The notes beneath the pieces are model-generated. The model was given only the letters and a program-made list of their open reading frames with translations. It was not told the DNA's origin and did not search any database. Made by a program: the position numbers and the translations under genes. Shown piece after piece: positions 1-30,238 of a DNA stretch of 64,000 nt (its first letter is position 1; every line of letters begins with the position of its first letter). Source of the DNA: Thermodesulfobacteriota bacterium (lineage in GTDB: Bacteria > Desulfobacterota_D > UBA1144 > Nemesobacterales > Mycalebacteriaceae); assembly GCA_965226585.1 (NCBI GenBank), contig OZ245366.1:487423-551422 (forward strand), in the 5' to 3' direction.

Positions 1-103
1 GAAATGTCAGGCCATGTCGATTCCACCTGTCAAAAATATACTTTAGTGTTTCCCTTGCCCCGTCTCTTACTATTTGAGTGTCAAACCTATTTGGTGTGCT
101 CAT
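1..103 (-). CDS. Partial CDS (N-terminus only; runs off the window start), hypothetical protein. Its start codon overlaps the Fic stop (ATGA).
   Basis: The reverse complement of bp 1-103 reads ATG AGC ACA CCA AAT..., giving MSTPNRFDTQIVRDGARETLKYIFDRWNRHGLTF... with no stop before the window edge. The ATG at 103-101 overlaps the TGA of the upstream Fic gene at 102-100. It is not in the ORF track because it is truncated. Confidence 0.3.
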   Translation of the reverse strand, partial: MSTPNRFDTQIVRDGARETLKYIFDRWNRHGLTF

Positions 104-1536
104 GTGTCACCCTTACATTCCTTGAGAATATCAAGAAACAAATGTTTGCCTTCAGCAAACAACTTTTTAACTTCTTCTTCGGAGTAGGGTTGGCTGTAGT
201 CCTTTTTCAAACCATTCACACTCTTTGCATTCAGTCCCTCTTTTTTAATTCTTAAACCTGTTTTATAACCGAGTTCTTCCAAAAAAAATGCTAACTTGCA
301 GTTGCAGTCAAAAGATCTATTTGCTTGGCCCATATATCCATAATATTGGTAATCTATTACGAATAAATTTCTTGCATGCCGTGAGATATACTCAAAATTC
401 ATAGTGAAGTTTTCTTTGATAGTATTAATTAGATTGTTTAGATTCTCATCCGTCAATTTAGCACCTTGGGAAATTGTTTGTAAGCATTTGTTAGAGTTGT
501 TCTCACTATAATTTTCATCCATTCTTGTTATTTCCAATGAAGTTTGCTCAAACAGGTCGCTATACACACTAAATTCTTTGATGAACATTTTAGAAGTCTC
601 TGCAAAACATTTATCAAATATTTCTGTGCAATTTGTCGGTGTGATTGGCACTTTTAACCCTGTTTCTTTTTGCTGTCGGATGAATTGCTGAGTTTCTTTA
701 TCAATGTCTTCAATCTCGCTTATATCTTCACCTTTTGCCGCCTTAACCCCAATCTCCAGCCAATAAACAAGAATGTTCCCAAGATATGTTGCAAGAGTAT
801 CCATATCTTCGTCATCCGCTTTCTGCAAAGCCGCAAAGTAGTTTCTTTTCTCTTCGCTCTTAATTACCAAAGGCGGGTAACCCAGTTTCAATAAAACATA
901 GTTCACCCACAGACGCACTACACGGCCGTTGCCGTCATCAAACGGGTGTATAACGATAAAGCGGTGGTGTAGTTCCGCGATAAAAGAAGCGATTGGCAGA
1001 GTCGGTTTTTCAATCTCATTGTTAAACCAATCCATAAGTTCATTCATTTTGGGAGAAACTTCCTGAGGTTCCGCAAACTTGAAAATCTCTCCCGTCTCTG
1101 TCCTTACGTGATTAGGTTGTGTCTTATACTGTCCGGGGATTATCTCTTTCTGAGTTTTTTGTCCGTCAGTAGTTTCCGCTTCTTTCCAGAAAGATTCTTT
1201 GAGAATAATTTTGTTCAAGCCCCTGATGTCGGCTTCCGTGAGATTTCTCTGTTTGTCTTCTGCAAACTCTCTGACTTTATCTATTGCCACATCGTGCGCT
1301 TTCATTTCCATATAATCGCGTTCAGGGTGAATTCCTTCCTCTTTTCCCTCAAGTATTAAGGCAACAGTTTCGCCGTAGGTAAGCGTATTCCCTTCAATGT
1401 GATTTGAATTGTAGTTCCACTCCAGACGGACTTTCTTATCAAACCGTTCCTTATCCTCCGGTTTAAGCGGTTGAATCTCCCGCCATTCCTTAAAAAGCGT
1501 TTCTATGCGTTTGTTAGTTTCCTGTAAAGACATCAC
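100..1536 (-). CDS. Fic/DOC family protein (class II Fic, putative AMP-transferase) with a roughly 190-aa C-terminal extension of unknown function
   Basis: It carries the canonical Fic motif HPFDDGNGR. An N-terminal SNHIEGN element matches the (S/T)xxxE(G/N) inhibitory-helix motif of class II Fic proteins. The coding DNA for the C-terminal third (about 100-700) is markedly AT-rich compared with the rest of the gene. Confidence 0.85.
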   Translation of the reverse strand: MMSLQETNKRIETLFKEWREIQPLKPEDKERFDKKVRLEWNYNSNHIEGNTLTYGETVALILEGKEEGIHPERDYMEMKAHDVAIDKVREFAEDKQRNLTEADIRGLNKIILKESFWKEAETTDGQKTQKEIIPGQYKTQPNHVRTETGEIFKFAEPQEVSPKMNELMDWFNNEIEKPTLPIASFIAELHHRFIVIHPFDDGNGRVVRLWVNYVLLKLGYPPLVIKSEEKRNYFAALQKADDEDMDTLATYLGNILVYWLEIGVKAAKGEDISEIEDIDKETQQFIRQQKETGLKVPITPTNCTEIFDKCFAETSKMFIKEFSVYSDLFEQTSLEITRMDENYSENNSNKCLQTISQGAKLTDENLNNLINTIKENFTMNFEYISRHARNLFVIDYQYYGYMGQANRSFDCNCKLAFFLEELGYKTGLRIKKEGLNAKSVNGLKKDYSQPYSEEEVKKLFAEGKHLFLDILKECKGDT

Positions 1537-22658: not shown

Positions 22659-22662
22659 GCAA

Positions 22663-23064
22663 GTGAGTGATATTGAAACAAGGGAGGATGTGGAACTGCT
22701 TGTAGACCGTTTCTACGACAAAATGCTCGCGGATTCAATTCTCGGTTTTATTTTCACGGATATTGCGAAGGTTGATATTGATAAACACAAGCCGGTTATT
22801 TGTGATTTTTGGGAAACGCTTTTGTTTAACAAGGCGGTCTACAAACGGGGACCCGAAGTGATGAATGTGCACAAGAGGCTTAATGAAAAGATTCCTCTAA
22901 AAAAAGGGCATTTCAAAAGGTGGCTTTTTCTGTTCTCAAGAACCGTTGACGAATTGTTTGAAGGCAAACGCGCAAGTTTTGCCAAAGAGAAAGCGGATTC
23001 AATTGCGGTGCTGATGCAAAAGAGAGTTGGGGTTGAGGGAGGGGTGGAAGGGAAAAGCATATAG
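22663..23064 (+). CDS. Globin-like protein (truncated haemoglobin family)
   Basis: It is about 130 aa with a truncated-Hb-like pattern (FYDKMLADSILGFIF...FWETLLF). It has a GTG start. Confidence 0.45.
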   Translation: MSDIETREDVELLVDRFYDKMLADSILGFIFTDIAKVDIDKHKPVICDFWETLLFNKAVYKRGPEVMNVHKRLNEKIPLKKGHFKRWLFLFSRTVDELFEGKRASFAKEKADSIAVLMQKRVGVEGGVEGKSI

Positions 23065-23089
23065 TGGTATTCTACGGGAGGTAGTATTG

Positions 23090-23896
23090 ATGGAATTACA
23101 AAAGAAGAAGTCAATTGAAGCTATAGTTCGTTCTGCTGTGGAGTCGTACGCCGTAGGCTTTCAAGCACGCCATGAAGGAGAGGTTGATAATCCTTCTGGC
23201 GTCATCAATATGAAGGTTCATAATGTTTTTATTGAGGCACTTGGGAAAGATATTCAATACTACGCTGCACTTGTACGTTCTTTGGATAGTTCACTCGGAA
23301 ACATGCTTGAAAACATGGCAATCAACATAGCAAAGATGTCATTTGAGGTGAGAACCAATGTTGAAGGTCCGCTTGACCCATCTCAAACACGGAAGATTGC
23401 AAATATTCTGGAGAAGTACAAAAGTCGCAAGAAGGTACCGGCAATATCTGACTATAAGGGTTTGAGAAAACCCCCGAAGGGTGACAAGGCAAGTAAAAAA
23501 CGCCATGAAAGCGATTACTACTTGATTGATGACAAAAATGACAGTCACTATTTGATTGAACTGAAAATTGGCGGTGATCTGGATAACAAGAAAGCCCGTT
23601 CCGAGAAAGAGGCGATTTTAGAACAGTTTGCCATATTGTCTAATACTCTCCCACAAGATAAAGAAATTAAGATTTTCTTTGCAACAGGCTATAACCGCTT
23701 TGGTGAGAATCAGCCTTGGAAACAGGAGCGTGTTCGTCAGTTTTTTGCTGATGAAGAACTACTTGTCGGCAAAGATTTCTGGAATTTTGTATGTTGTTCA
23801 GATGACGGCTATCCTACCGTCATTAATACTTACAGAGAGAGTGCCCACTTGATTAACAAAGCACTCGAGTCGATAAAGAGGACTTATCTTGGCTAA
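23090..23896 (+). CDS. Putative type II restriction endonuclease (PD-(D/E)xK fold)
   Basis: It lies immediately upstream of, and overlaps, a DNA methyltransferase gene. A candidate catalytic motif is ...YYLIDDKNDSHYLIELK (D...ELK). It is AT-rich and its start has a GGGAGG RBS. Confidence 0.5.
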   Translation: MELQKKKSIEAIVRSAVESYAVGFQARHEGEVDNPSGVINMKVHNVFIEALGKDIQYYAALVRSLDSSLGNMLENMAINIAKMSFEVRTNVEGPLDPSQTRKIANILEKYKSRKKVPAISDYKGLRKPPKGDKASKKRHESDYYLIDDKNDSHYLIELKIGGDLDNKKARSEKEAILEQFAILSNTLPQDKEIKIFFATGYNRFGENQPWKQERVRQFFADEELLVGKDFWNFVCCSDDGYPTVINTYRESAHLINKALESIKRTYLG

Positions 23897-24659
23897 AAAA
23901 GTAGAAAAGAGTTATCAATTGCGTCTGGGGGATAGCCATGAATTGATAAAGCAAGTACCCACTTCTTCTGTTGATTTAATCCTTACAGATCCTCCCTATA
24001 ATCTAAGTCCTTATTCTACCGGCAACATTAAGATGTCTTGGCGAAAAGATTTGAACAACGATCTTGCGGACTGGGATAAGGTTGAATTCAAGCCGTCCGA
24101 ATGGGTCAAGGAGTTTAAGAGAATACTAAAACCAGAAGGAAACATTTTTGCCTTCTGTAGTTACAATCTTATTGGCAAATGGCACGAGGTTTTCGACCCT
24201 GAATTTGATACATTCCAATTTATGGTATGGCATAAAACAAACCCAGCACCCAAGATTCGTCGGGCGGGTTTCTTGAACAGTTGTGAAATGATAATTTGTA
24301 TGTGGAACAAAAACCACACTTGGAATTTTACAAATCAAAGAGATATGCACAACTTTATTGAAACACCGATTTGCATGGGTGTTGAAAGGATGAAAAAACC
24401 GAAACACCCTACACAGAAGCCAGTAAGGGTTTTAGAACATTGTATCAACCTTGCTTCGGTGGAGGGTGATGTTGTTTTTGACCCGTTTATGGGAGTTGGT
24501 TCAACAGGAATTGCCGCCCTCAATTTGGATAGGAAGTTTATTGGATTTGAAATAGAAAAAGAATATTTTAAGGCAGCAGAGAAAAGATTGGATGGTAAAC
24601 CTGCCAAACTAGTTTTTGATTGCGATAAGCAAACTTCACGTAAGGTAGGTGTATCATAG
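23889..24659 (+). CDS. DNA methyltransferase, beta-class (N6-adenine or N4-cytosine)
   Basis: The catalytic DPPYN motif comes first, then HPTQKP, then a C-terminal SAM motif FDPFMGVGSTGIAA. This order is typical of beta-class amino-MTases. It has a TTG start overlapping the REase end. Confidence 0.85.
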   Translation: MAKKVEKSYQLRLGDSHELIKQVPTSSVDLILTDPPYNLSPYSTGNIKMSWRKDLNNDLADWDKVEFKPSEWVKEFKRILKPEGNIFAFCSYNLIGKWHEVFDPEFDTFQFMVWHKTNPAPKIRRAGFLNSCEMIICMWNKNHTWNFTNQRDMHNFIETPICMGVERMKKPKHPTQKPVRVLEHCINLASVEGDVVFDPFMGVGSTGIAALNLDRKFIGFEIEKEYFKAAEKRLDGKPAKLVFDCDKQTSRKVGVS

Positions 24660-25278
24660 GGTGATTATAGACTTTCCTGAGGCACAAACATATATTGCCA
24701 AGATAATTTCACAATATGTCAATAGACAAATTCGTGAACGCTCTAAATTGCTTTCAATGATGAATCCGGTACATGTCGTACATGAGGGTGACAGAATTGG
24801 AATTCACCGTGAAGATGGGAGCCGTGAGTCTAAACCACTTACGCTTCATAAGAGTGAGGTCCAAATAACAGGTGATAATGGGGTTGCAATTGGAGCAGAA
24901 GAACTGGTAAAAGGTCTTGATGATATGGTCGGGGATATGTCTCGTCAACTTGAAAAAAGTGTTGTGAGTGGAATACAAGATATCGCCGAGAAAGGCGAGA
25001 ATACAGTCTCAGGCAGTATGGACAATATTGAAAGTATGCAAGATATGCTTCTTCAATCAATGGAGAATATGCATATTGATTTCAAAGATGGTGATCGCAA
25101 TAAGCCAATACTCCCAAGTTTGCTTGTTCACCCCACTATGGGTTCAAAACTCGCCGAACTTGCATCAGGAGAGACGCAGATACAAAAAGATAACTTTAAG
25201 GAACGCGAAAAAAAGATATTGGATGAAAAATATAAGGATTACATAAATGATATCAATTCTCGTATTATCGTAGATTGA
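24649..25278 (+). CDS. Hypothetical protein X (no recognisable domain), third gene of the R-M operon
   Basis: Its start overlaps the MTase stop, and it is followed 1 nt later by the next gene. It is AT-rich. The start codon is uncertain (GTG at 24649/24661, or ATG at 24757). Confidence 0.45.
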   Translation: MYHRVIIDFPEAQTYIAKIISQYVNRQIRERSKLLSMMNPVHVVHEGDRIGIHREDGSRESKPLTLHKSEVQITGDNGVAIGAEELVKGLDDMVGDMSRQLEKSVVSGIQDIAEKGENTVSGSMDNIESMQDMLLQSMENMHIDFKDGDRNKPILPSLLVHPTMGSKLAELASGETQIQKDNFKEREKKILDEKYKDYINDINSRIIVD

Positions 25279-25279
25279 T

Positions 25280-26896
25280 ATGTGCAGTAGTAACAATCAA
25301 AATAGAGACCCTTTTTTACAGAGAGCTATTGAATACTGGCTAGATTCTGCAAACGAACTTGGCTATCAGCCACTTTTCTGTGAGTCATTGATAAACAAAG
25401 GGTATAGTCTCAAATATTCAATTAAAAATACGAGTTTTGAACAGGGAAAGGATGTTGTTGCAGTTGATTCTGAAGGAATACCCCATGCTTATCAATTAAA
25501 GGGTGGAAAGATAACTTTGGATAGGTGGAGAAGAGAAGTTAGACCTGAGATAGAGGCATTAATTGATTGTCCAATAGAGCATCCTGAAATTAAAAAAGAA
25601 GACATGCATGAGTCTCACCTCGTTACTAATGGTGAGTTAGATGATAGTGTTAGGGTTGAAATAAATAGCCTCAATTCCAAGAAATGGAAGGAAACTCCTC
25701 TGCGTTTAGAAACAAGAGGGGATTTGCTAAGTGCTTTTCAGAAAATGGCAGAAGGGATGTTTCCTATTGATGCGCAAATGTACAGACAAATTGTTGATTT
25801 AATGTTTGTGGATGGAGAGGGTTCTCCTAATCTGGATCGAGTAAACAATTTTCTTGTTGGGATTCTACAAATAAACAAAGACGGTAAAGTTCCAAAAGAG
25901 CAGAGGAAAAGAGATATAGCGGCAGCACTTCTTTACTCAACAATTTTTGTAGGGCATTACAGAAAAATGGAAAACCATATTTCCGTTGTCCGGATAATGG
26001 TTTTGTTGCTTTCTCTAATCTTTCATTTAGTCGACAAGCATAATCTTGAAGACAAGTATTGGATTGATTCCTACAAAATCATCTGGAATGACATTGTTGA
26101 AACATTAAAATTATTAGAAGGTGAAATTAAAGATGGTTCTCTTCATAGAATTCCTGAAGACCCTCTGAAGAGTGGACTCAAGCAATTTAGAGAGCATGGA
26201 GCAGTTTCCCTCCTGCTTTCCCTTCAATTGGCAGAATGTATCTCAAACAAAGAAAAACGTAACGATATAGTTGATTACTTAACTCAAGTAGATATAAACA
26301 AACATATTTTACTCTGGGGAGAATCTTCTTTAGTCCCCTACATTTTTATGTCGTTGATATTAAAGGTTCAAGAACCAAAATTCGCGTCTGATATTTTGAA
26401 AAATGCAGCATTAGAGATAATCAGACATAATGGAAGAACATCTAATGAAAAACTAGGTCTGCTTTCTCCTTATTATGATATAGATTATGCAGTAAAAATA
26501 AAATTCGATTTGTTGGAGAAAGAATTCGAGGATCATACACCTCTGCATTCTTATTTTTTAAATCCTCTCGTTCACCTGCTTGCAAGATTTCAAGAAAGAG
26601 CTTTTCTTTCTAGTGTTTGGAAGGAGATTTCCTTCATATATTTTGAAGAGTTTGTATTTGATAATAACATAGACTATTACCTTTGGAGATCCCAAAGAGG
26701 GGAAAATCTTACCACCGCTCCACAGAAACAGCAAAGTTGGTCGGATCTAGAGAATAAATCTTCTCAAACCAGTAGTGATATGCCTCCGAAAACGATGCAA
26801 AGATTTCCAGAATTTTTACCACTTTTCCTCTCAGTATTTCCTTTCAGATTAAATTCTCAAACACTATGTTTTTTGGACAGTCAAATTAATGGCTAA
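25280..26896 (+). CDS. Hypothetical protein Y with an N-terminal Mrr/NERD-like PD-(D/E)xK nuclease signature and a large C-terminal helical domain
   Basis: The N-terminal segment GKDVVAVDSEGIPHAYQLKGGK fits the D-x(n)-E/Q-x-K pattern of Mrr_cat/NERD restriction-endonuclease-like domains. The remaining roughly 420 aa have no recognisable motif. Confidence 0.5.
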   Translation: MCSSNNQNRDPFLQRAIEYWLDSANELGYQPLFCESLINKGYSLKYSIKNTSFEQGKDVVAVDSEGIPHAYQLKGGKITLDRWRREVRPEIEALIDCPIEHPEIKKEDMHESHLVTNGELDDSVRVEINSLNSKKWKETPLRLETRGDLLSAFQKMAEGMFPIDAQMYRQIVDLMFVDGEGSPNLDRVNNFLVGILQINKDGKVPKEQRKRDIAAALLYSTIFVGHYRKMENHISVVRIMVLLLSLIFHLVDKHNLEDKYWIDSYKIIWNDIVETLKLLEGEIKDGSLHRIPEDPLKSGLKQFREHGAVSLLLSLQLAECISNKEKRNDIVDYLTQVDINKHILLWGESSLVPYIFMSLILKVQEPKFASDILKNAALEIIRHNGRTSNEKLGLLSPYYDIDYAVKIKFDLLEKEFEDHTPLHSYFLNPLVHLLARFQERAFLSSVWKEISFIYFEEFVFDNNIDYYLWRSQRGENLTTAPQKQQSWSDLENKSSQTSSDMPPKTMQRFPEFLPLFLSVFPFRLNSQTLCFLDSQING

Positions 26897-26945
26897 TTCA
26901 GGAGGTTGCCAAATTTGTCTTTTTCCCGGCATTGTTTTAGGTATT

Positions 26946-28037
26946 TCACCCCATCTCATACCCCGTACTCCTTCCGCCTTCTTTGCTTTTCTTTAATATC
27001 TTCAACTCAATCAGCGCGTTAATATCCCTTTGCGCGGTGTCTTGGGAGCATTTTCCCATCTTTGCCCACTTTGACGAAGTGAGTTTGCCCTTGAAGTTTC
27101 CGTCCAGAAGCAAGTTCAAAATCTTTGTCTGCCTGCTGTTGAAAGGCACCTCAGCGTATTCCTCCCAAAAACGCGCCTTATGCAGGATTGCCGACAGCAT
27201 TTTGTCGGAACCCGCTATGGAACGTTTGAGACAACCCAGAAACCAACTCAGCCATTTTGTAATATCAACTCCGCTGTTTTGCGTTTCCTCAAGCTGTCTG
27301 TAGTAGTCCTGCCTCTCTTCCATTATCTGCGTGGACATACTGTAAAAACGTTGCGATGTTTCCTCGGAACGGGCAAGAGCCATCTCCGCTATCGCCCTTG
27401 TTGTGCGCCCGTTCCCGTCATCAAACGGGTGGATAATTACAAACCACAGGTGAGCAACCGCCGCTTTAATCACCGGATCCATTGAAGACGGCGAGTTAAA
27501 CCACGAAAGAAAATCATCCATCTCCTTCGGAACCCGCTCTGCGGGCGGAGCAACAAAATGAACCCTCATCCTTCCCTCGCGCCCCGATACAACCTGAACT
27601 CCGTGAGTACGCCACTTTCCGGTTGTTATCTTGTGAAAACCACTGCGCCCGTCCGGGAAAAGAGAAGCGTGCCAGCCGAAAAGCCGCTTTTTTGTGAGCG
27701 TTTTGTCAAAATTTGTTGTGGCGTCAATCAGTATCTCCACTATGCCGTCCACCTCACGCCCGTACGGTTTGCCCTCATACGTATCTATTCCCAAACGCCG
27801 CGCAACGGATGAACGAACCTCCTCAACATCAAGAAACTCCCCCTCAATTTCACTGGTTTTGATAATCTCTCCCGACAGAGTCCGGAAAGCGGCGTCACGC
27901 CTCAGATTAAAACCGAGACCGCTCATGCGTCCCAGCAAAAGCCCCTGCGTGCGGTGAACCTCCGCCAAAAGAGCAGACAACTCGCCGTCATCCCACTTCA
28001 AAAGGGGCCAACCCTTTTCTTCCCATAAATACGGCAT
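26946..28037 (-). CDS. Fic family protein (DUF4172-type N-terminus, C-terminal winged-helix domain)
   Basis: It carries the Fic motif HPFDDGNGR and an inhibitory-type motif TSEIEGE, with a C-terminal wHTH (KILNLL...SSKWAKMGKCSQDTAQRDINAL). I placed the start at MPYLWEE (ATG at 28037, RBS AGAGG). The 14-codon extension in the ORF track overlaps the operator-like repeats. Confidence 0.85.
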   Translation of the reverse strand: MPYLWEEKGWPLLKWDDGELSALLAEVHRTQGLLLGRMSGLGFNLRRDAAFRTLSGEIIKTSEIEGEFLDVEEVRSSVARRLGIDTYEGKPYGREVDGIVEILIDATTNFDKTLTKKRLFGWHASLFPDGRSGFHKITTGKWRTHGVQVVSGREGRMRVHFVAPPAERVPKEMDDFLSWFNSPSSMDPVIKAAVAHLWFVIIHPFDDGNGRTTRAIAEMALARSEETSQRFYSMSTQIMEERQDYYRQLEETQNSGVDITKWLSWFLGCLKRSIAGSDKMLSAILHKARFWEEYAEVPFNSRQTKILNLLLDGNFKGKLTSSKWAKMGKCSQDTAQRDINALIELKILKKSKEGGRSTGYEMG

Positions 28038-28046
28038 ATTGTGAAC

Positions 28047-28212
28047 CTCTGCGGAGATTAATGTTGCTATTCTCCGCATATTTTGCGGAGAATATAGCCC
28101 GCATTCACCGCAAAATCAACCTTAATCTCCGCACATTCTGCGGAGATTAGCAATTTCTATGACTCATAATTTGGGGGTTTTATGAGTCATAGAACAGTTT
28201 CCTATGACTCAT
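28047..28212. promoter_or_regulatory. Cluster of three perfect palindromes plus half-sites in the Fic 5' region
   Basis: The first palindrome is ATTCTCCGCA-tattt-TGCGGAGAAT (28069-28093). The second is TAATCTCCGCA-cattc-TGCGGAGATTA (28123-28149), with a half-site TGCGGAGATTA (28050-28060) overlapping the Fic RBS. The third is CTATGACTCATAA-N10-TTATGAGTCATAG (28157-28192), with a third CTATGACTCAT copy at 28202-28212. Confidence 0.55.
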
Positions 28213-28834
28213 CATTAAAAAACCCCGCCAGTTTTCGCGCCGCAGTTTCGGGGTCTTTCTCCCCAAATATTGCCGTGATGACGGCTATTCCGTCCACTCC
28301 GGTTTTCAGCACATCGGCGGCGTTTTCGGGGGTTATTCCGCCAATCGCGAAAACGGGGATGGTCAGTTTCGCTTTTGCCTCGCGCAAAACCTCAAACGGG
28401 GTCGGTTTTCTGCCGGGCTTTGTGGGAGTGAAATACGGAGTTCCAAAAGCCGCGTAATCCGCCCCCGCTTTTTCGGCGGCAACCGCCCTTTCAATATCCC
28501 CGTAGCATGAAACGCCTATAATCGCCCCGCCGCCAAGCAGTTCTCTCGCCTCACAAACGGTTTTGTCTCCGCCGCCGAGATGAACCCCGTCCGCGCCCGC
28601 CTTTTTCGCAATCTCAGGGCTGTCATTGATTATGAACGGAACTCCGTATCTCCGCGCAATCGCGGCAAGGGCTTTTCCCTTTCCGGCTGTCTCATCTGCG
28701 CTTGAGTTTTTATCGCGCAGTTGAACAACCCTCGCCCCGCCTTTTATCGCGGCTTCAACGGAGCGGGCAAAACCGCCTTCCGGAATCAGCTTTTCATCCG
28801 TAATTGCGTAGAGTCCGCGCAGGGAAAAGTTCAT
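28202..28834 (-). CDS. thiE: Thiamine-phosphate synthase
   Basis: It shows a TMP-TENI fold (GLYAITDE...VVQLRDK...VHLGGGD...IGVSCY...IAIGGI). Confidence 0.85.
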   Translation of the reverse strand: MNFSLRGLYAITDEKLIPEGGFARSVEAAIKGGARVVQLRDKNSSADETAGKGKALAAIARRYGVPFIINDSPEIAKKAGADGVHLGGGDKTVCEARELLGGGAIIGVSCYGDIERAVAAEKAGADYAAFGTPYFTPTKPGRKPTPFEVLREAKAKLTIPVFAIGGITPENAADVLKTGVDGIAVITAIFGEKDPETAARKLAGFFNDES

Positions 28835-28843
28835 CGCGGTTTT

Positions 28844-30238
28844 TCAGTTTCCTTCAATGTGTTTGAAAATTGCGTCTTTCACAACGTCATAACTGTTGGG
28901 CAGTTCCAGAGGCTGATTGCGGAACGTTTTGTTCGCGCCCTTTATCTTCCCCTCGTGATACCCGATTTTGAACTCAACAAACTTCAGCCCGTGCGCCGTG
29001 GAGATAATCACCACCTTGTCTTTCTTTTTGAAAGTTCCCCGCGCCTGAAGTTTAAGGAAAACGGCAAGTGCCACACCCGTGTGCGGGCAGTTGAATGTGC
29101 CGGTTTTATCCGCCATCGCAGAAGCGTCTGACAGCTCTTTTTCAGATGCCTGCTCCACAATTCCGTCAAACTCCCGCAAGGTTTTTATCGCCTTGTTCAC
29201 GCTCACCGGGTTTCCAATCTGAATCGCGTTGGCAAGCGTTTTCTTTGCCTTCACGGGCTTGAACTCTTTGAATCCTTTTTTGTAACTCAAGTAAAGCGGG
29301 TTGGCGTTTTGAGACTGCGCGCAAACGATGCGGGGCAGTTTTTTTATCAGCCCCAAGTCGCGCATAAGCAGAAATCCCTTTCCCAGCGCGGACACATTTC
29401 CGAGGTTTCCGCCCGGAATTATAATCCAGTCCGGCACGTCCCATTTGAACTGCTGGCAAAGCTCAATGCTGATGGTTTTCTGCCCTTCAATCCGCAAAGA
29501 GTTTATGGAGTTCGCCAGATATATGTTGTTTTCCTGCGTAACTTTCTGAACCATTTTCATACAGCCGTCAAAATCGGTATCAAGAGAAAGCACCATCGCG
29601 CCGTTTGAAATTGGCTGAACAAGTTGAGCGAGAGAAACCTTTCCTCTCGGCAGAAACACAATCGCCGGAATATCAGCCGCCGCGCAATAAGCCGCCAGAG
29701 CGGCGGAGGTGTCTCCCGTTGAGGCGCAGGCGACCGCCGGAATGTCGCGGTTTTTTTTGCGCATATGCTGAACAACGGAAACAAGAACCGTCATTCCGAG
29801 GTCTTTGAAAGAGCCCGTGTGGCTGTTTCCGCACATCTTTATCCAGATGTCATTCATTCCCACCTGTTTGCCGAACCTCTCCGCCCAGAACAGATTTGTT
29901 GAGCCCTCATACATTGAGACGATGTCTTCATCCTTCACCACCGGGCAGACCCATTCTTTTTTGCCCCACACCGAACTGCCGAAGGGCCATGACTGATTTT
30001 TGTAGCGTTCGTCAAAGATGTTTTTCCACTCTTGCGGAGGCGTTTGGGCAAGCAGTTCCCTGTCGTGCGTTACTTCAAGCAGTTCGCCGCATTCACCGCA
30101 ACGGTAGATAACTTCGTCAATTTCGTAGGTTTTGCCGCATTCGGGGTTGATGCAACTGAGCCATGCCCTGTAGACGGGTTTTTTTCCGGAGAGCTTTTTT
30201 TTGCGGGTGCTTCGGGAACCCGGAGAGGTGTTGGGCAT
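28844..30238 (-). CDS. thrC: Threonine synthase (long form with N-terminal zinc ribbon)
   Basis: It has a PLP-lysine motif (HTGSFKDLGM) and a fold-type II PLP enzyme layout. The N-terminus carries CxxC...CxxC. Confidence 0.8.
   Translation of the reverse strand: MPNTSPGSRSTRKKKLSGKKPVYRAWLSCINPECGKTYEIDEVIYRCGECGELLEVTHDRELLAQTPPQEWKNIFDERYKNQSWPFGSSVWGKKEWVCPVVKDEDIVSMYEGSTNLFWAERFGKQVGMNDIWIKMCGNSHTGSFKDLGMTVLVSVVQHMRKKNRDIPAVACASTGDTSAALAAYCAAADIPAIVFLPRGKVSLAQLVQPISNGAMVLSLDTDFDGCMKMVQKVTQENNIYLANSINSLRIEGQKTISIELCQQFKWDVPDWIIIPGGNLGNVSALGKGFLLMRDLGLIKKLPRIVCAQSQNANPLYLSYKKGFKEFKPVKAKKTLANAIQIGNPVSVNKAIKTLREFDGIVEQASEKELSDASAMADKTGTFNCPHTGVALAVFLKLQARGTFKKKDKVVIISTAHGLKFVEFKIGYHEGKIKGANKTFRNQPLELPNSYDVVKDAIFKHIEGN

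Follow-up and report, generated by a model that had tools for sequence, protein, structure and literature searches.

Inverted repeats upstream of a fic gene as a probable operator for the Fic protein's own winged helix-turn-helix domain

The locus described here raises the question of which protein reads the cluster of inverted repeats that lies in front of a fic gene in a 64,000-nucleotide stretch of contig OZ245366.1 from a Thermodesulfobacteriota bacterium (the whole of this stretch is called the window below). Autoregulation by Fic proteins with a C-terminal winged helix-turn-helix (wHTH) domain is already known in principle; the class II Fic protein CccR (YPK_0951) of Yersinia pseudotuberculosis represses its own gene through inverted repeats at its own -35/-10 (PMC9755527). 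From comparison of sequences, we propose with a probability of about 0.78 that the TCTCCGCA/TGCGGAGA repeats form the operator of the window fic gene and are bound by the wHTH of the Fic protein itself, and that a third palindrome in the same region is separate from this operator. The motif and its architecture appear to be new, as do the specificity residue and the operator predicted for a homologue from Coxiella burnetii. No published description of the TGCGGAGA/TCTCCGCA motif in a Fic context was found in the literature covered, outside which the subscription journals lay.

Half-sites and predicted promoter in front of fic

Across the family the half-site consensus, denoted R, is TGCGGAGAWTA, where W is A or T, and F is the complement of R. 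The features that make up the putative operator, and the gene behind it, are as follows.

28123-28149: distal operator dyad TAATCTCCGCA-GAATG-TGCGGAGATTA (N5), perfect, ending 3 nt (AGG) upstream of the -35
28114-28119, minus strand: predicted -35 hexamer TTGATT, from a sigma70-like scan
28103-28112: degenerate half-site ATTCACCGCA (TGCGGTGAAT on the minus strand), in the 17-nt promoter spacer, the first R of the proximal R-F-R triple
28091-28096, minus strand: predicted -10 hexamer TATATT, which overlaps the proximal dyad at its left arm
28068-28094: proximal operator dyad TATTCTCCGCA-N5-TGCGGAGAATA, perfect, covering the -10 and the expected transcription start
28050-28060, minus strand: extra half-site TGCGGAGATTA (TAATCTCCGCA on the minus strand), directly upstream of the Shine-Dalgarno sequence
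28046-28049, minus strand: Shine-Dalgarno sequence GAGG, 8 nt ahead of ATG 28037, read from the sequence
26946-28037, minus strand: fic coding sequence, 363 aa, DUF4172 + class II Fic + C-terminal wHTH
27006-27044, minus strand: predicted wHTH recognition helix, codons 332-344, QDTAQRDINALIE, from an AlphaFold2 (AF2) model

Read along the minus strand, the region runs from the stop codon of the upstream gene thiE through a 45-nt hairpin block, AAATTGC, the dyad TAATCTCCGCA-GAATG-TGCGGAGATTA, AGG and TTGATT, and then through the spacer with TGCGGTGAAT, TATATT fused to (TA)TTCTCCGCA-AAATA-TGCGGAGAATA, 7 nt, TAATCTCCGCA, GAGG and 8 nt to the ATG. In the 64 kb, TCTCCGCA occurs 11 times where 2.4 copies would be expected, and five of these copies fall in one 100-bp stretch upstream of fic. 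The dyad pattern with up to three mismatches has five matches against 0.23 expected, a number reached in none of 100 shuffles, and the only perfect matches in the window are the two upstream of fic. By these counts and shuffles, the repeats listed in the initial annotation are all present at the places it gave, far beyond chance. The half-site that it placed over the fic ribosome-binding site (RBS) also exists, at 28050-28060, but abuts GAGG rather than covering it. Its description of three different palindromes needs to be revised, since both of its dyad families are the single motif TGCGGAGAWTA. With the dyads reduced to one motif and the third palindrome not a conserved operator, the suggestion of at least two DNA-binding inputs falls away, and the arrangement is not unusually elaborate, several half-sites being the norm in this family and six being present in its canonical form.

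TTGATT-17-TATATT is the only sigma70-like site that a pattern scan returned between 27900 and 28400, and as a consensus match it is the predicted promoter of fic. As in the case of CccR, inverted repeats overlap the -35/-10 of the gene's own, here predicted, promoter and are conserved. Fic dimers on the sites would block RNA polymerase and probably also the ribosome-binding region, and such negative feedback would keep a potentially toxic AMP-transferase low. We infer physical binding and stoichiometry as well as repression, the sign of which is suggested by the position of the sites and by the CccR precedent.

The start of fic at ATG 28037, to which the initial annotation had reassigned it, is borne out by the homologues, all of which open with M-x-Y-[IL]-W there, and by a 99%-identical Fic annotated from the same ATG in the NCBI metagenome-assembled genome record GCA_051010995.1. 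The open reading frame (ORF) extension upstream of this ATG is, as had been suspected, not translated. The encoded protein matches Pfam DUF4172 (PF13776, E 1.3e-29) over residues 3-84 and Pfam Fic (E 5.1e-18), and with HPFDDGNGRTTR at residues 203-214 it belongs to class II Fic. Its inhibitory motif, TSEIEG at residues 61-66, fits (S/T)xxxE(G/N) and precedes the Fic core in the same polypeptide; S62, E63, I64, E65 and G66 are invariant in 34 homologues. In the AF2 model (pLDDT 88.4) the wHTH comprises helices 301-312, 321-328 and 332-344 and strands 348-350 and 360-362, and Pfam gives only a weak, sub-threshold HTH_DeoR match at the C-terminus (E 0.008). The PADLOC SoFic model PDLC03963 aligns with residues 13-359 at profile positions 18-348 of 361 (E 2.7e-51).

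Conservation of the motif and its match to the Fic protein

The window derives from a Thermodesulfobacteriota/Dadabacteria-like lineage of metagenome-assembled genomes. Seven syntenic thiE-fic loci, with Fic identities of 72-99%, provided a phylogenetic footprint. Between the genes, only the half-sites, TTGA and TATATT form invariant blocks in the alignment, the spacers having drifted. The arm cores of the distal dyad, ATCTCCGC and TGCGGAG, are invariant in all seven with varying flanks, the proximal dyad is kept throughout, and in three loci (L002, L004 and L283) the half-site corresponding to 28050-28060 has a degenerate partner that extends into the start codon.

The motif is not confined to this gene order. 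Homologues of fic at 56-66% identity, found after a helicase gene, next to shufflon and transposase genes and on the chromosome of Paracoccus methylovorus, have the same half-sites in the same places, and since these neighbourhoods are unrelated, the motif belongs to fic and not to thiE. One genome per species (185,579 species, 596 Gb) was scanned for the dyad with a third half-site, a pattern expected less than once by chance, and at least 120 loci matched. Among the 120 matches listed, about 78 abut a full-length DUF4172-Fic gene and about 9 directly adjoin a Fic remnant or another Fic gene, 4 lie at block edges and are not evaluable, and about 30 are without fic; the phyla represented among them are Acidobacteriota, Pseudomonadota, Bacteroidota, Planctomycetota, Verrucomicrobiota, Spirochaetota, Bacillota, Cyanobacteriota, Chlamydiota and others. 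For the converse test, 80 metagenome loci (76 of them usable) were picked by protein similarity alone and half-sites with at most one mismatch were counted between -130 and +3. At least two half-sites were present in 74 of the 76 DUF4172-Fic-wHTH loci and at least three in 68, whereas 204 of 228 control windows from coding regions had none. Half-site positions 8-10 (W, T, A) are conserved even though they were outside the search pattern.

Conservation of this kind bears on whether the dyads are protein sites at all, or rather nucleic-acid hairpins serving as a thrC-thiE terminator or an mRNA leader. The distal dyad also fits a simple terminator-like pattern on both strands (stem and T-rich tail, 28122-28150), and transcribed arms could pair. 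We nevertheless regard a hairpin role as highly improbable, since the sequence is conserved beyond mere complementarity, the W-T-A positions are kept although they lie outside the stems, half-sites that stand alone without a partner are conserved too, and the same sites follow many different upstream genes and occur in divergent intergenic regions.

With the start codons of the loci superposed, half-sites most often begin at R -97, F -76, R -63, R -42, F -21 and R -8. A cTTGa/c element lies between R -63 and R -42, F -21 overlaps TATAAT, and the ATG follows directly after the last R. In its canonical form the operator is a pair of R-N13-F-N5-R triples spaced 55 bp apart, the last half-site of which ends at the start codon. 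Across the family, a GGAG-like sequence often fills the 5 nt between the arms of the proximal dyad. The distal dyad of the window is the family's distal F-R pair. Compared with the canonical layout, the window clade has its proximal triple shifted 33 nt upstream, lacks the first distal R, since thiE ends there, and has an extra half-site in the RBS region, which is a degenerate full dyad in the three loci named above. In Bacteroidota loci (L085, L092, L144, L145, L165 and others) the triple is found further upstream, at about -130 to -60, and is followed not by TATAAT but by TAnnTTTG-like boxes, which we take to be promoter boxes of the Bacteroidota type. The operator appears to have been re-fitted to this promoter type.

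This positioning is also what separates transcriptional control from an operator that is mainly allosteric, in which binding to the site would dimerise Fic and so switch it between AMPylase and deAMPylase activity, promoter occlusion being a by-product. DNA-induced dimerisation does switch the activity of CbFic2 from Coxiella burnetii (PMC10628234), dimerisation controls the activity of SoFic and EcSofic, and fic-less sites outside promoters, described below, fit ligand sites. Transcriptional control, however, predicts both that the sites lie with base-pair precision over the -35, -10, RBS and start codon, as they do in hundreds of loci, and that in Bacteroidota they move upstream of the TAnnTTTG-like boxes. 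We therefore consider it improbable that allostery is the main purpose of the operator, and the two roles are not mutually exclusive.

The sequence of the half-site varies between loci, and this variation points to the protein that reads it. The operator variants TGCGGTGA, TGCGGCGA, TGCGTAGA and TGCGTCGA are uniform inside a locus and track the adjacent Fic protein. Of all 363 positions, it is residue 332 whose mutual information with the operator variant is highest (0.444 bit, 0 of 1000 permutations), and it co-varies with half-site positions 5-6. This residue opens helix 3, the predicted recognition helix, which is otherwise near-invariant in the family. Gln-332, which is the residue in the window Fic, goes with GA (TGCGGAGA) in 76 of 78 cases and His-332 goes with T[AC] (TGCGT[AC]GA) in all cases, while Gly, Thr, Asn, Ala or Ser at this position mostly goes with G[TC]. 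The His-332 loci belong to at least three lineages when the proteins are compared outside the wHTH. This makes a strong, if indirect, case for the Fic wHTH as the reader of the half-sites. An operator for the C-terminal wHTH, as put forward in the initial annotation, is thus supported at the sequence level in two ways, by a motif that follows fic through unrelated contexts and phyla and by its co-variation with residue 332.

Motif clusters also occur away from fic. A scan of IMG/VR with the bare dyad returned 73 loci (L010-L082), of which only one has fic and about 40 have a third half-site at the exact family spacing. The fic-less copies have varied flanks with many mobile-element genes (integrase, recombinase, TacAT, methyltransferases), and at L070 and L074 fic-less triples lie directly beside tRNA genes. 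When the flanking ORFs, and also every ORF within +/-4 kb, were compared all against all by BLASTP, no gene family common to the fic-less clusters emerged, and Fic remnants were present at only about 10 of 76 fic-less motif clusters. Intact, correctly spaced fic-less triples account for about 25% of the genome matches listed. It is possible that the fic-less clusters are remnants, secondary targets or decoys.

The existence of such clusters in genomes and phage contigs favours a separate trans-acting regulator that binds TGCGGAGAWTA and has fic as one member of its regulon. A regulator of this kind seems very unlikely to us, since no protein family is common to the surroundings (+/-4 kb) of 39 fic-less viral loci, the neighbours of fic loci vary widely and leave fic as the only gene conserved beside the motif, and in several lineages the operator variant changes with residue 332 of the neighbouring Fic. 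Neither the window nor a whole plasmid of 67.7 kb contains further sites. That plasmid, a complete Roseibium replicon, has exactly one motif cluster, in front of its fic; in PLSDB, 439 plasmids carry a homologue of the window Fic.

The mobile-element-rich contexts of the fic-less copies, some beside tRNA genes, would also suit a dispersed repeat of the repetitive extragenic palindromic (REP) or miniature inverted-repeat transposable element (MITE) kind, or an attachment-site (att) type mobile repeat, located here by chance, and the fic island is itself an insertion relative to Candidatus Mycalebacterium. This explanation is hardly credible given one cluster per replicon or window examined, at a fixed position relative to the fic start, and clusters around which there are no terminal-repeat or target-duplication signatures. 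The initial annotation had named a dispersed REP-type repeat as the finding that would overturn its proposal; no other copy is present in the 64-kb window or in the homologue-bearing plasmid.

A further suggestion is that the fic-less triples are working Fic sites, either as decoys that hold SoFic-type proteins DNA-bound and dimeric or as a sensed DNA cue, and that mobile elements exploit them. We think this unlikely, but if it were true, a widespread Fic AMPylase/deAMPylase would be toggled by a specific DNA sequence as its physiological ligand.

Several points weigh against a Fic operator. CbFic2 bound random DNA with nanomolar affinity, which leaves specificity unproven (PMC10628234). About 30 of the 120 matches listed, and most of the architecture-positive matches on phage contigs, have no fic in reach; the motif therefore extends beyond fic autoregulation, which could point to another binder or another function. 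The co-variation is uncorrected for shared ancestry and represents few independent events, about three for His and several for the small residues. The window clade departs from the canonical layout, and occupancy rules for the latter are not simply transferable to it. Finally, on an Alistipes putredinis contig (CAVCKM010000046.1) a fic-less triple sits between convergent genes, which is not a promoter site. It lies 2.3 kb downstream of an operator-bearing fic and has the same orientation as the fic operator. The entries for this contig are:

1061-1101: entry L121
5559-5600: entry L145

At two loci the operator is followed by an ORF in which a wHTH is the sole Fic-related part (84 aa at L131, 107 aa at L112). 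These ORFs were found with domain hidden Markov models, a single-sequence phmmer search with the C-terminal domain being too insensitive. The short wHTH-only ORFs behind the operator (L131, L112 and L140) are stand-alone repressor genes or deletion derivatives that have lost the Fic core. At L189 (Sediminibacterium) an ORF 2 nt past a canonical triple was read by eye as a Fic of another subfamily, with a Fic_N-type N-terminus, and Fic genes other than the DUF4172 type may also have this operator.

The stem-loop beside thiE and the insertion hot spot

Between the operator and thiE lies the third palindrome, which is set out here with the genes upstream.

28155-28194: stem-loop with 15-nt perfect arms (28155-28169 and 28180-28194) and a 10-nt loop, lineage-specific
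28202-28212, minus strand: X1 = ATGAGTCATAG, the last 11 nt of thiE including its stop codon (TAG 28202-28204)
28202-28834, minus strand: thiE (thiamine-phosphate synthase), Pfam TMP-TENI E 3.3e-61, the neighbour upstream of fic
28844-30238, minus strand: thrC (span 30238-28844), the gene order on the strand being thrC, thiE, fic

The long-armed palindrome with a 10-nt loop is present and perfect as first described, except that its arms measure 15 nt and not 13. The third copy of CTATGACTCAT does overlap the thiE stop codon (28202-28212); there are three copies in the 64 kb against 0.56 expected, all at the hairpin/thiE end, and X1 recurs as a direct repeat at 28157-28167 and, inverted, at 28182-28192. 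The predicted RNA fold of the hairpin has -24.9 kcal/mol (z = -4.4). It was rightly judged not to be a simple terminator; it has no U-tract and was not called by a terminator scan, and where an intrinsic terminator has a G+C-rich stem and a U-tract, this stem is A+T-rich and followed by AAAUUGC.

L001, with a 99%-identical Fic, is shorter here than the window by exactly 45 bases. In the window this insert is flanked by an 11-nt direct repeat, ATGAGTCATAG, of which one copy is the thiE end with its stop codon, and an inverted copy sits between the two direct ones. The same 45-bp insert is found in a second strain with different downstream cargo (L285) and is absent from L001, L002, L003, L004, L283 and the fic-less L288. 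Since it is polymorphic among near-identical strains, the hairpin is dispensable. No comparable hairpin was found upstream of about 150 other fic loci, and its sequence is absent from the viral contigs. L284, with 72% Fic identity, has an analogue of the same geometry (9-nt spacer, 13-nt arm, 10-nt loop, 13-nt arm) that is built from its own, different thiE end, GATGATGTATAG. Since L284 keeps the geometry and not the sequence, the near-palindromic TATGA(C/G)TCATA arms are an accident of the thiE 3' end. On these sequence comparisons the third palindrome is neither part of the Fic operator nor a family-wide regulatory input. It is at most an RNA stem-loop or insulator for the thrC-thiE transcript, and we are undecided between a dispensable element of that kind and a recurrent templated duplication that is easily lost between direct repeats. 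In strains without the 45-bp hairpin, the distal dyad is the first stem-loop past thiE.

It has also to be considered whether the hairpin is a selected RNA switch or insulator, in which the thiE end and its copies would form two mutually exclusive hairpins according to ribosome occupancy at the thiE stop. In favour of selection, the predicted stem is strong, a second strain carries the insert, and L284 reproduces the 9/13/10/13 geometry with three compensated stem positions from its own thiE 3' end. The compensation in L284 could, however, be mere re-copying of the thiE end, the relative with the 99%-identical Fic has lost the element exactly between the 11-bp direct repeats, and four other syntenic loci are also without it. 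The missing U-tract and the absence of the hairpin from the other fic loci and the viral contigs count on the same side, and we regard a selected switch as doubtful. Two other candidates were rejected. Three TATGA(C/G)TCATA units as evenly spaced protein sites do not agree with L284, where the arms are not self-palindromic despite the same geometry. A mobile element or att scar does not agree with the lack of further copies in the window, the viral contigs and the roughly 150 fic loci, and no attC-like core was seen by eye.

In Candidatus Mycalebacterium, thrC-thiE is followed directly by convergent SDR and deoxyhypusine-synthase genes, without fic, and therefore fic and its variable cargo are an insertion. 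The window fic lies at the edge of this insertion hot spot (window 22659-28201), between thiE and the convergent SDR/deoxyhypusine-synthase pair, and Candidatus Mycalebacterium zealandia represents the empty site. The cargo in the window comprises a TdeIII-like restriction endonuclease (23027-23896), an N4/N6 methyltransferase (23889-24659) and two ORFs without a family match (24649-25278 and 25280-26896), with a G+C fraction of 0.35-0.41. It differs among the relatives (window, L001, L002/L003, L285, L286/L287), including an AAA_11/12 helicase in L001, GmrSD in L002 and L003, and a methyltransferase with a RAMA domain in L285.

The window has another Fic-domain gene (100-1536, minus strand, 478 aa), which is about 26% identical to the Fic core (E 6e-11). 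Its ORF shares 4 nt with the upstream ORF 1533-2246, and the two seem to form an operon. No TCTCCGCA sites were found near this gene.

Relation to known Fic proteins

CccR resembles the window Fic in having DUF4172, Fic and a C-terminal HTH. It is a dimer whose negative autoregulation has been shown by experiment. The two proteins are only distantly related, and CccR is a type VI secretion system effector. The operators also differ, that of CccR being the one wide pair AGATAATCAT-N26-ATGATAATCT, while the family of the window Fic has four to six TGCGGAGAWTA half-sites at 13- and 21-bp spacings. When CccR or SoFic-like chains are compared with the window Fic, only the Fic core aligns (E about 1e-10 to 1e-12).

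Among solved structures the nearest homologue is CbFic2 (8CIL), which matches the window Fic over residues 3-362 (E 1.8e-99) with the same domain order. It has been proposed to target host histones. Its wHTH is needed both for binding DNA and for the dimerisation that DNA induces; the published work used random DNA only, and according to its authors no specific motif is known (PMC10628234). At 10 nt ahead of its ATG the CbFic2 gene has GAAGCGATTA-N6-TAATCGCTTC-N7-GAAGCAATT, a triple of the same R-F-R geometry with TATAAT joined to the F arm (L291, 1448-1490). The sequence comparison thus predicts a specific operator for CbFic2, GAAGCGATTAATGTTATAATCGCTTCACAATACGAAGCAATT, with GAAGCGATTA as its half-site, and the recognition helix reads S-R-T-T-A where the window Fic has S-Q-D-T-A.

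SoFic binds within the 100 bp upstream of its own start, with the motif undefined (bioRxiv 10.64898/2026.07.09.737422), and the study of EcSofic does not address DNA (PMC12249575). Both are single-gene anti-phage defence systems, and the window Fic matches the PADLOC SoFic model end to end. Like SoFic, the window fic is situated in a variable hot spot of defence genes with adjacent restriction-modification genes. EcSofic has a downstream antitoxin, AS1 (47 aa), whereas the ORFs of at least 50 aa downstream of the window fic are on the opposite strand, smaller ORFs not having been searched. In the type II toxin-antitoxin system Phd/Doc, a toxin of the Fic/Doc fold is likewise held down via several adjacent palindromic sites at its own promoter. 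The window Fic differs from Phd/Doc in that the DNA-binding module and the inhibitor are in the toxin polypeptide, and no separate antitoxin gene is present at the locus among the ORFs of at least 50 aa listed.

AMP-transferases of the Fic family with a wHTH are widespread and are catalogued as 'SoFic' defence, and the DNA-binding side of these proteins is barely understood, with one operator (CccR) and one bound promoter fragment (SoFic) defined so far. The analysis supplies items that can be tested directly, namely the consensus TGCGGAGAWTA, the six-site architecture, residue 332 as a candidate for specificity, and the operator predicted for CbFic2. With these, the control of both Fic activity and fic expression by specific DNA becomes approachable, and the question is raised of what role the fic-less sites in phages may have.

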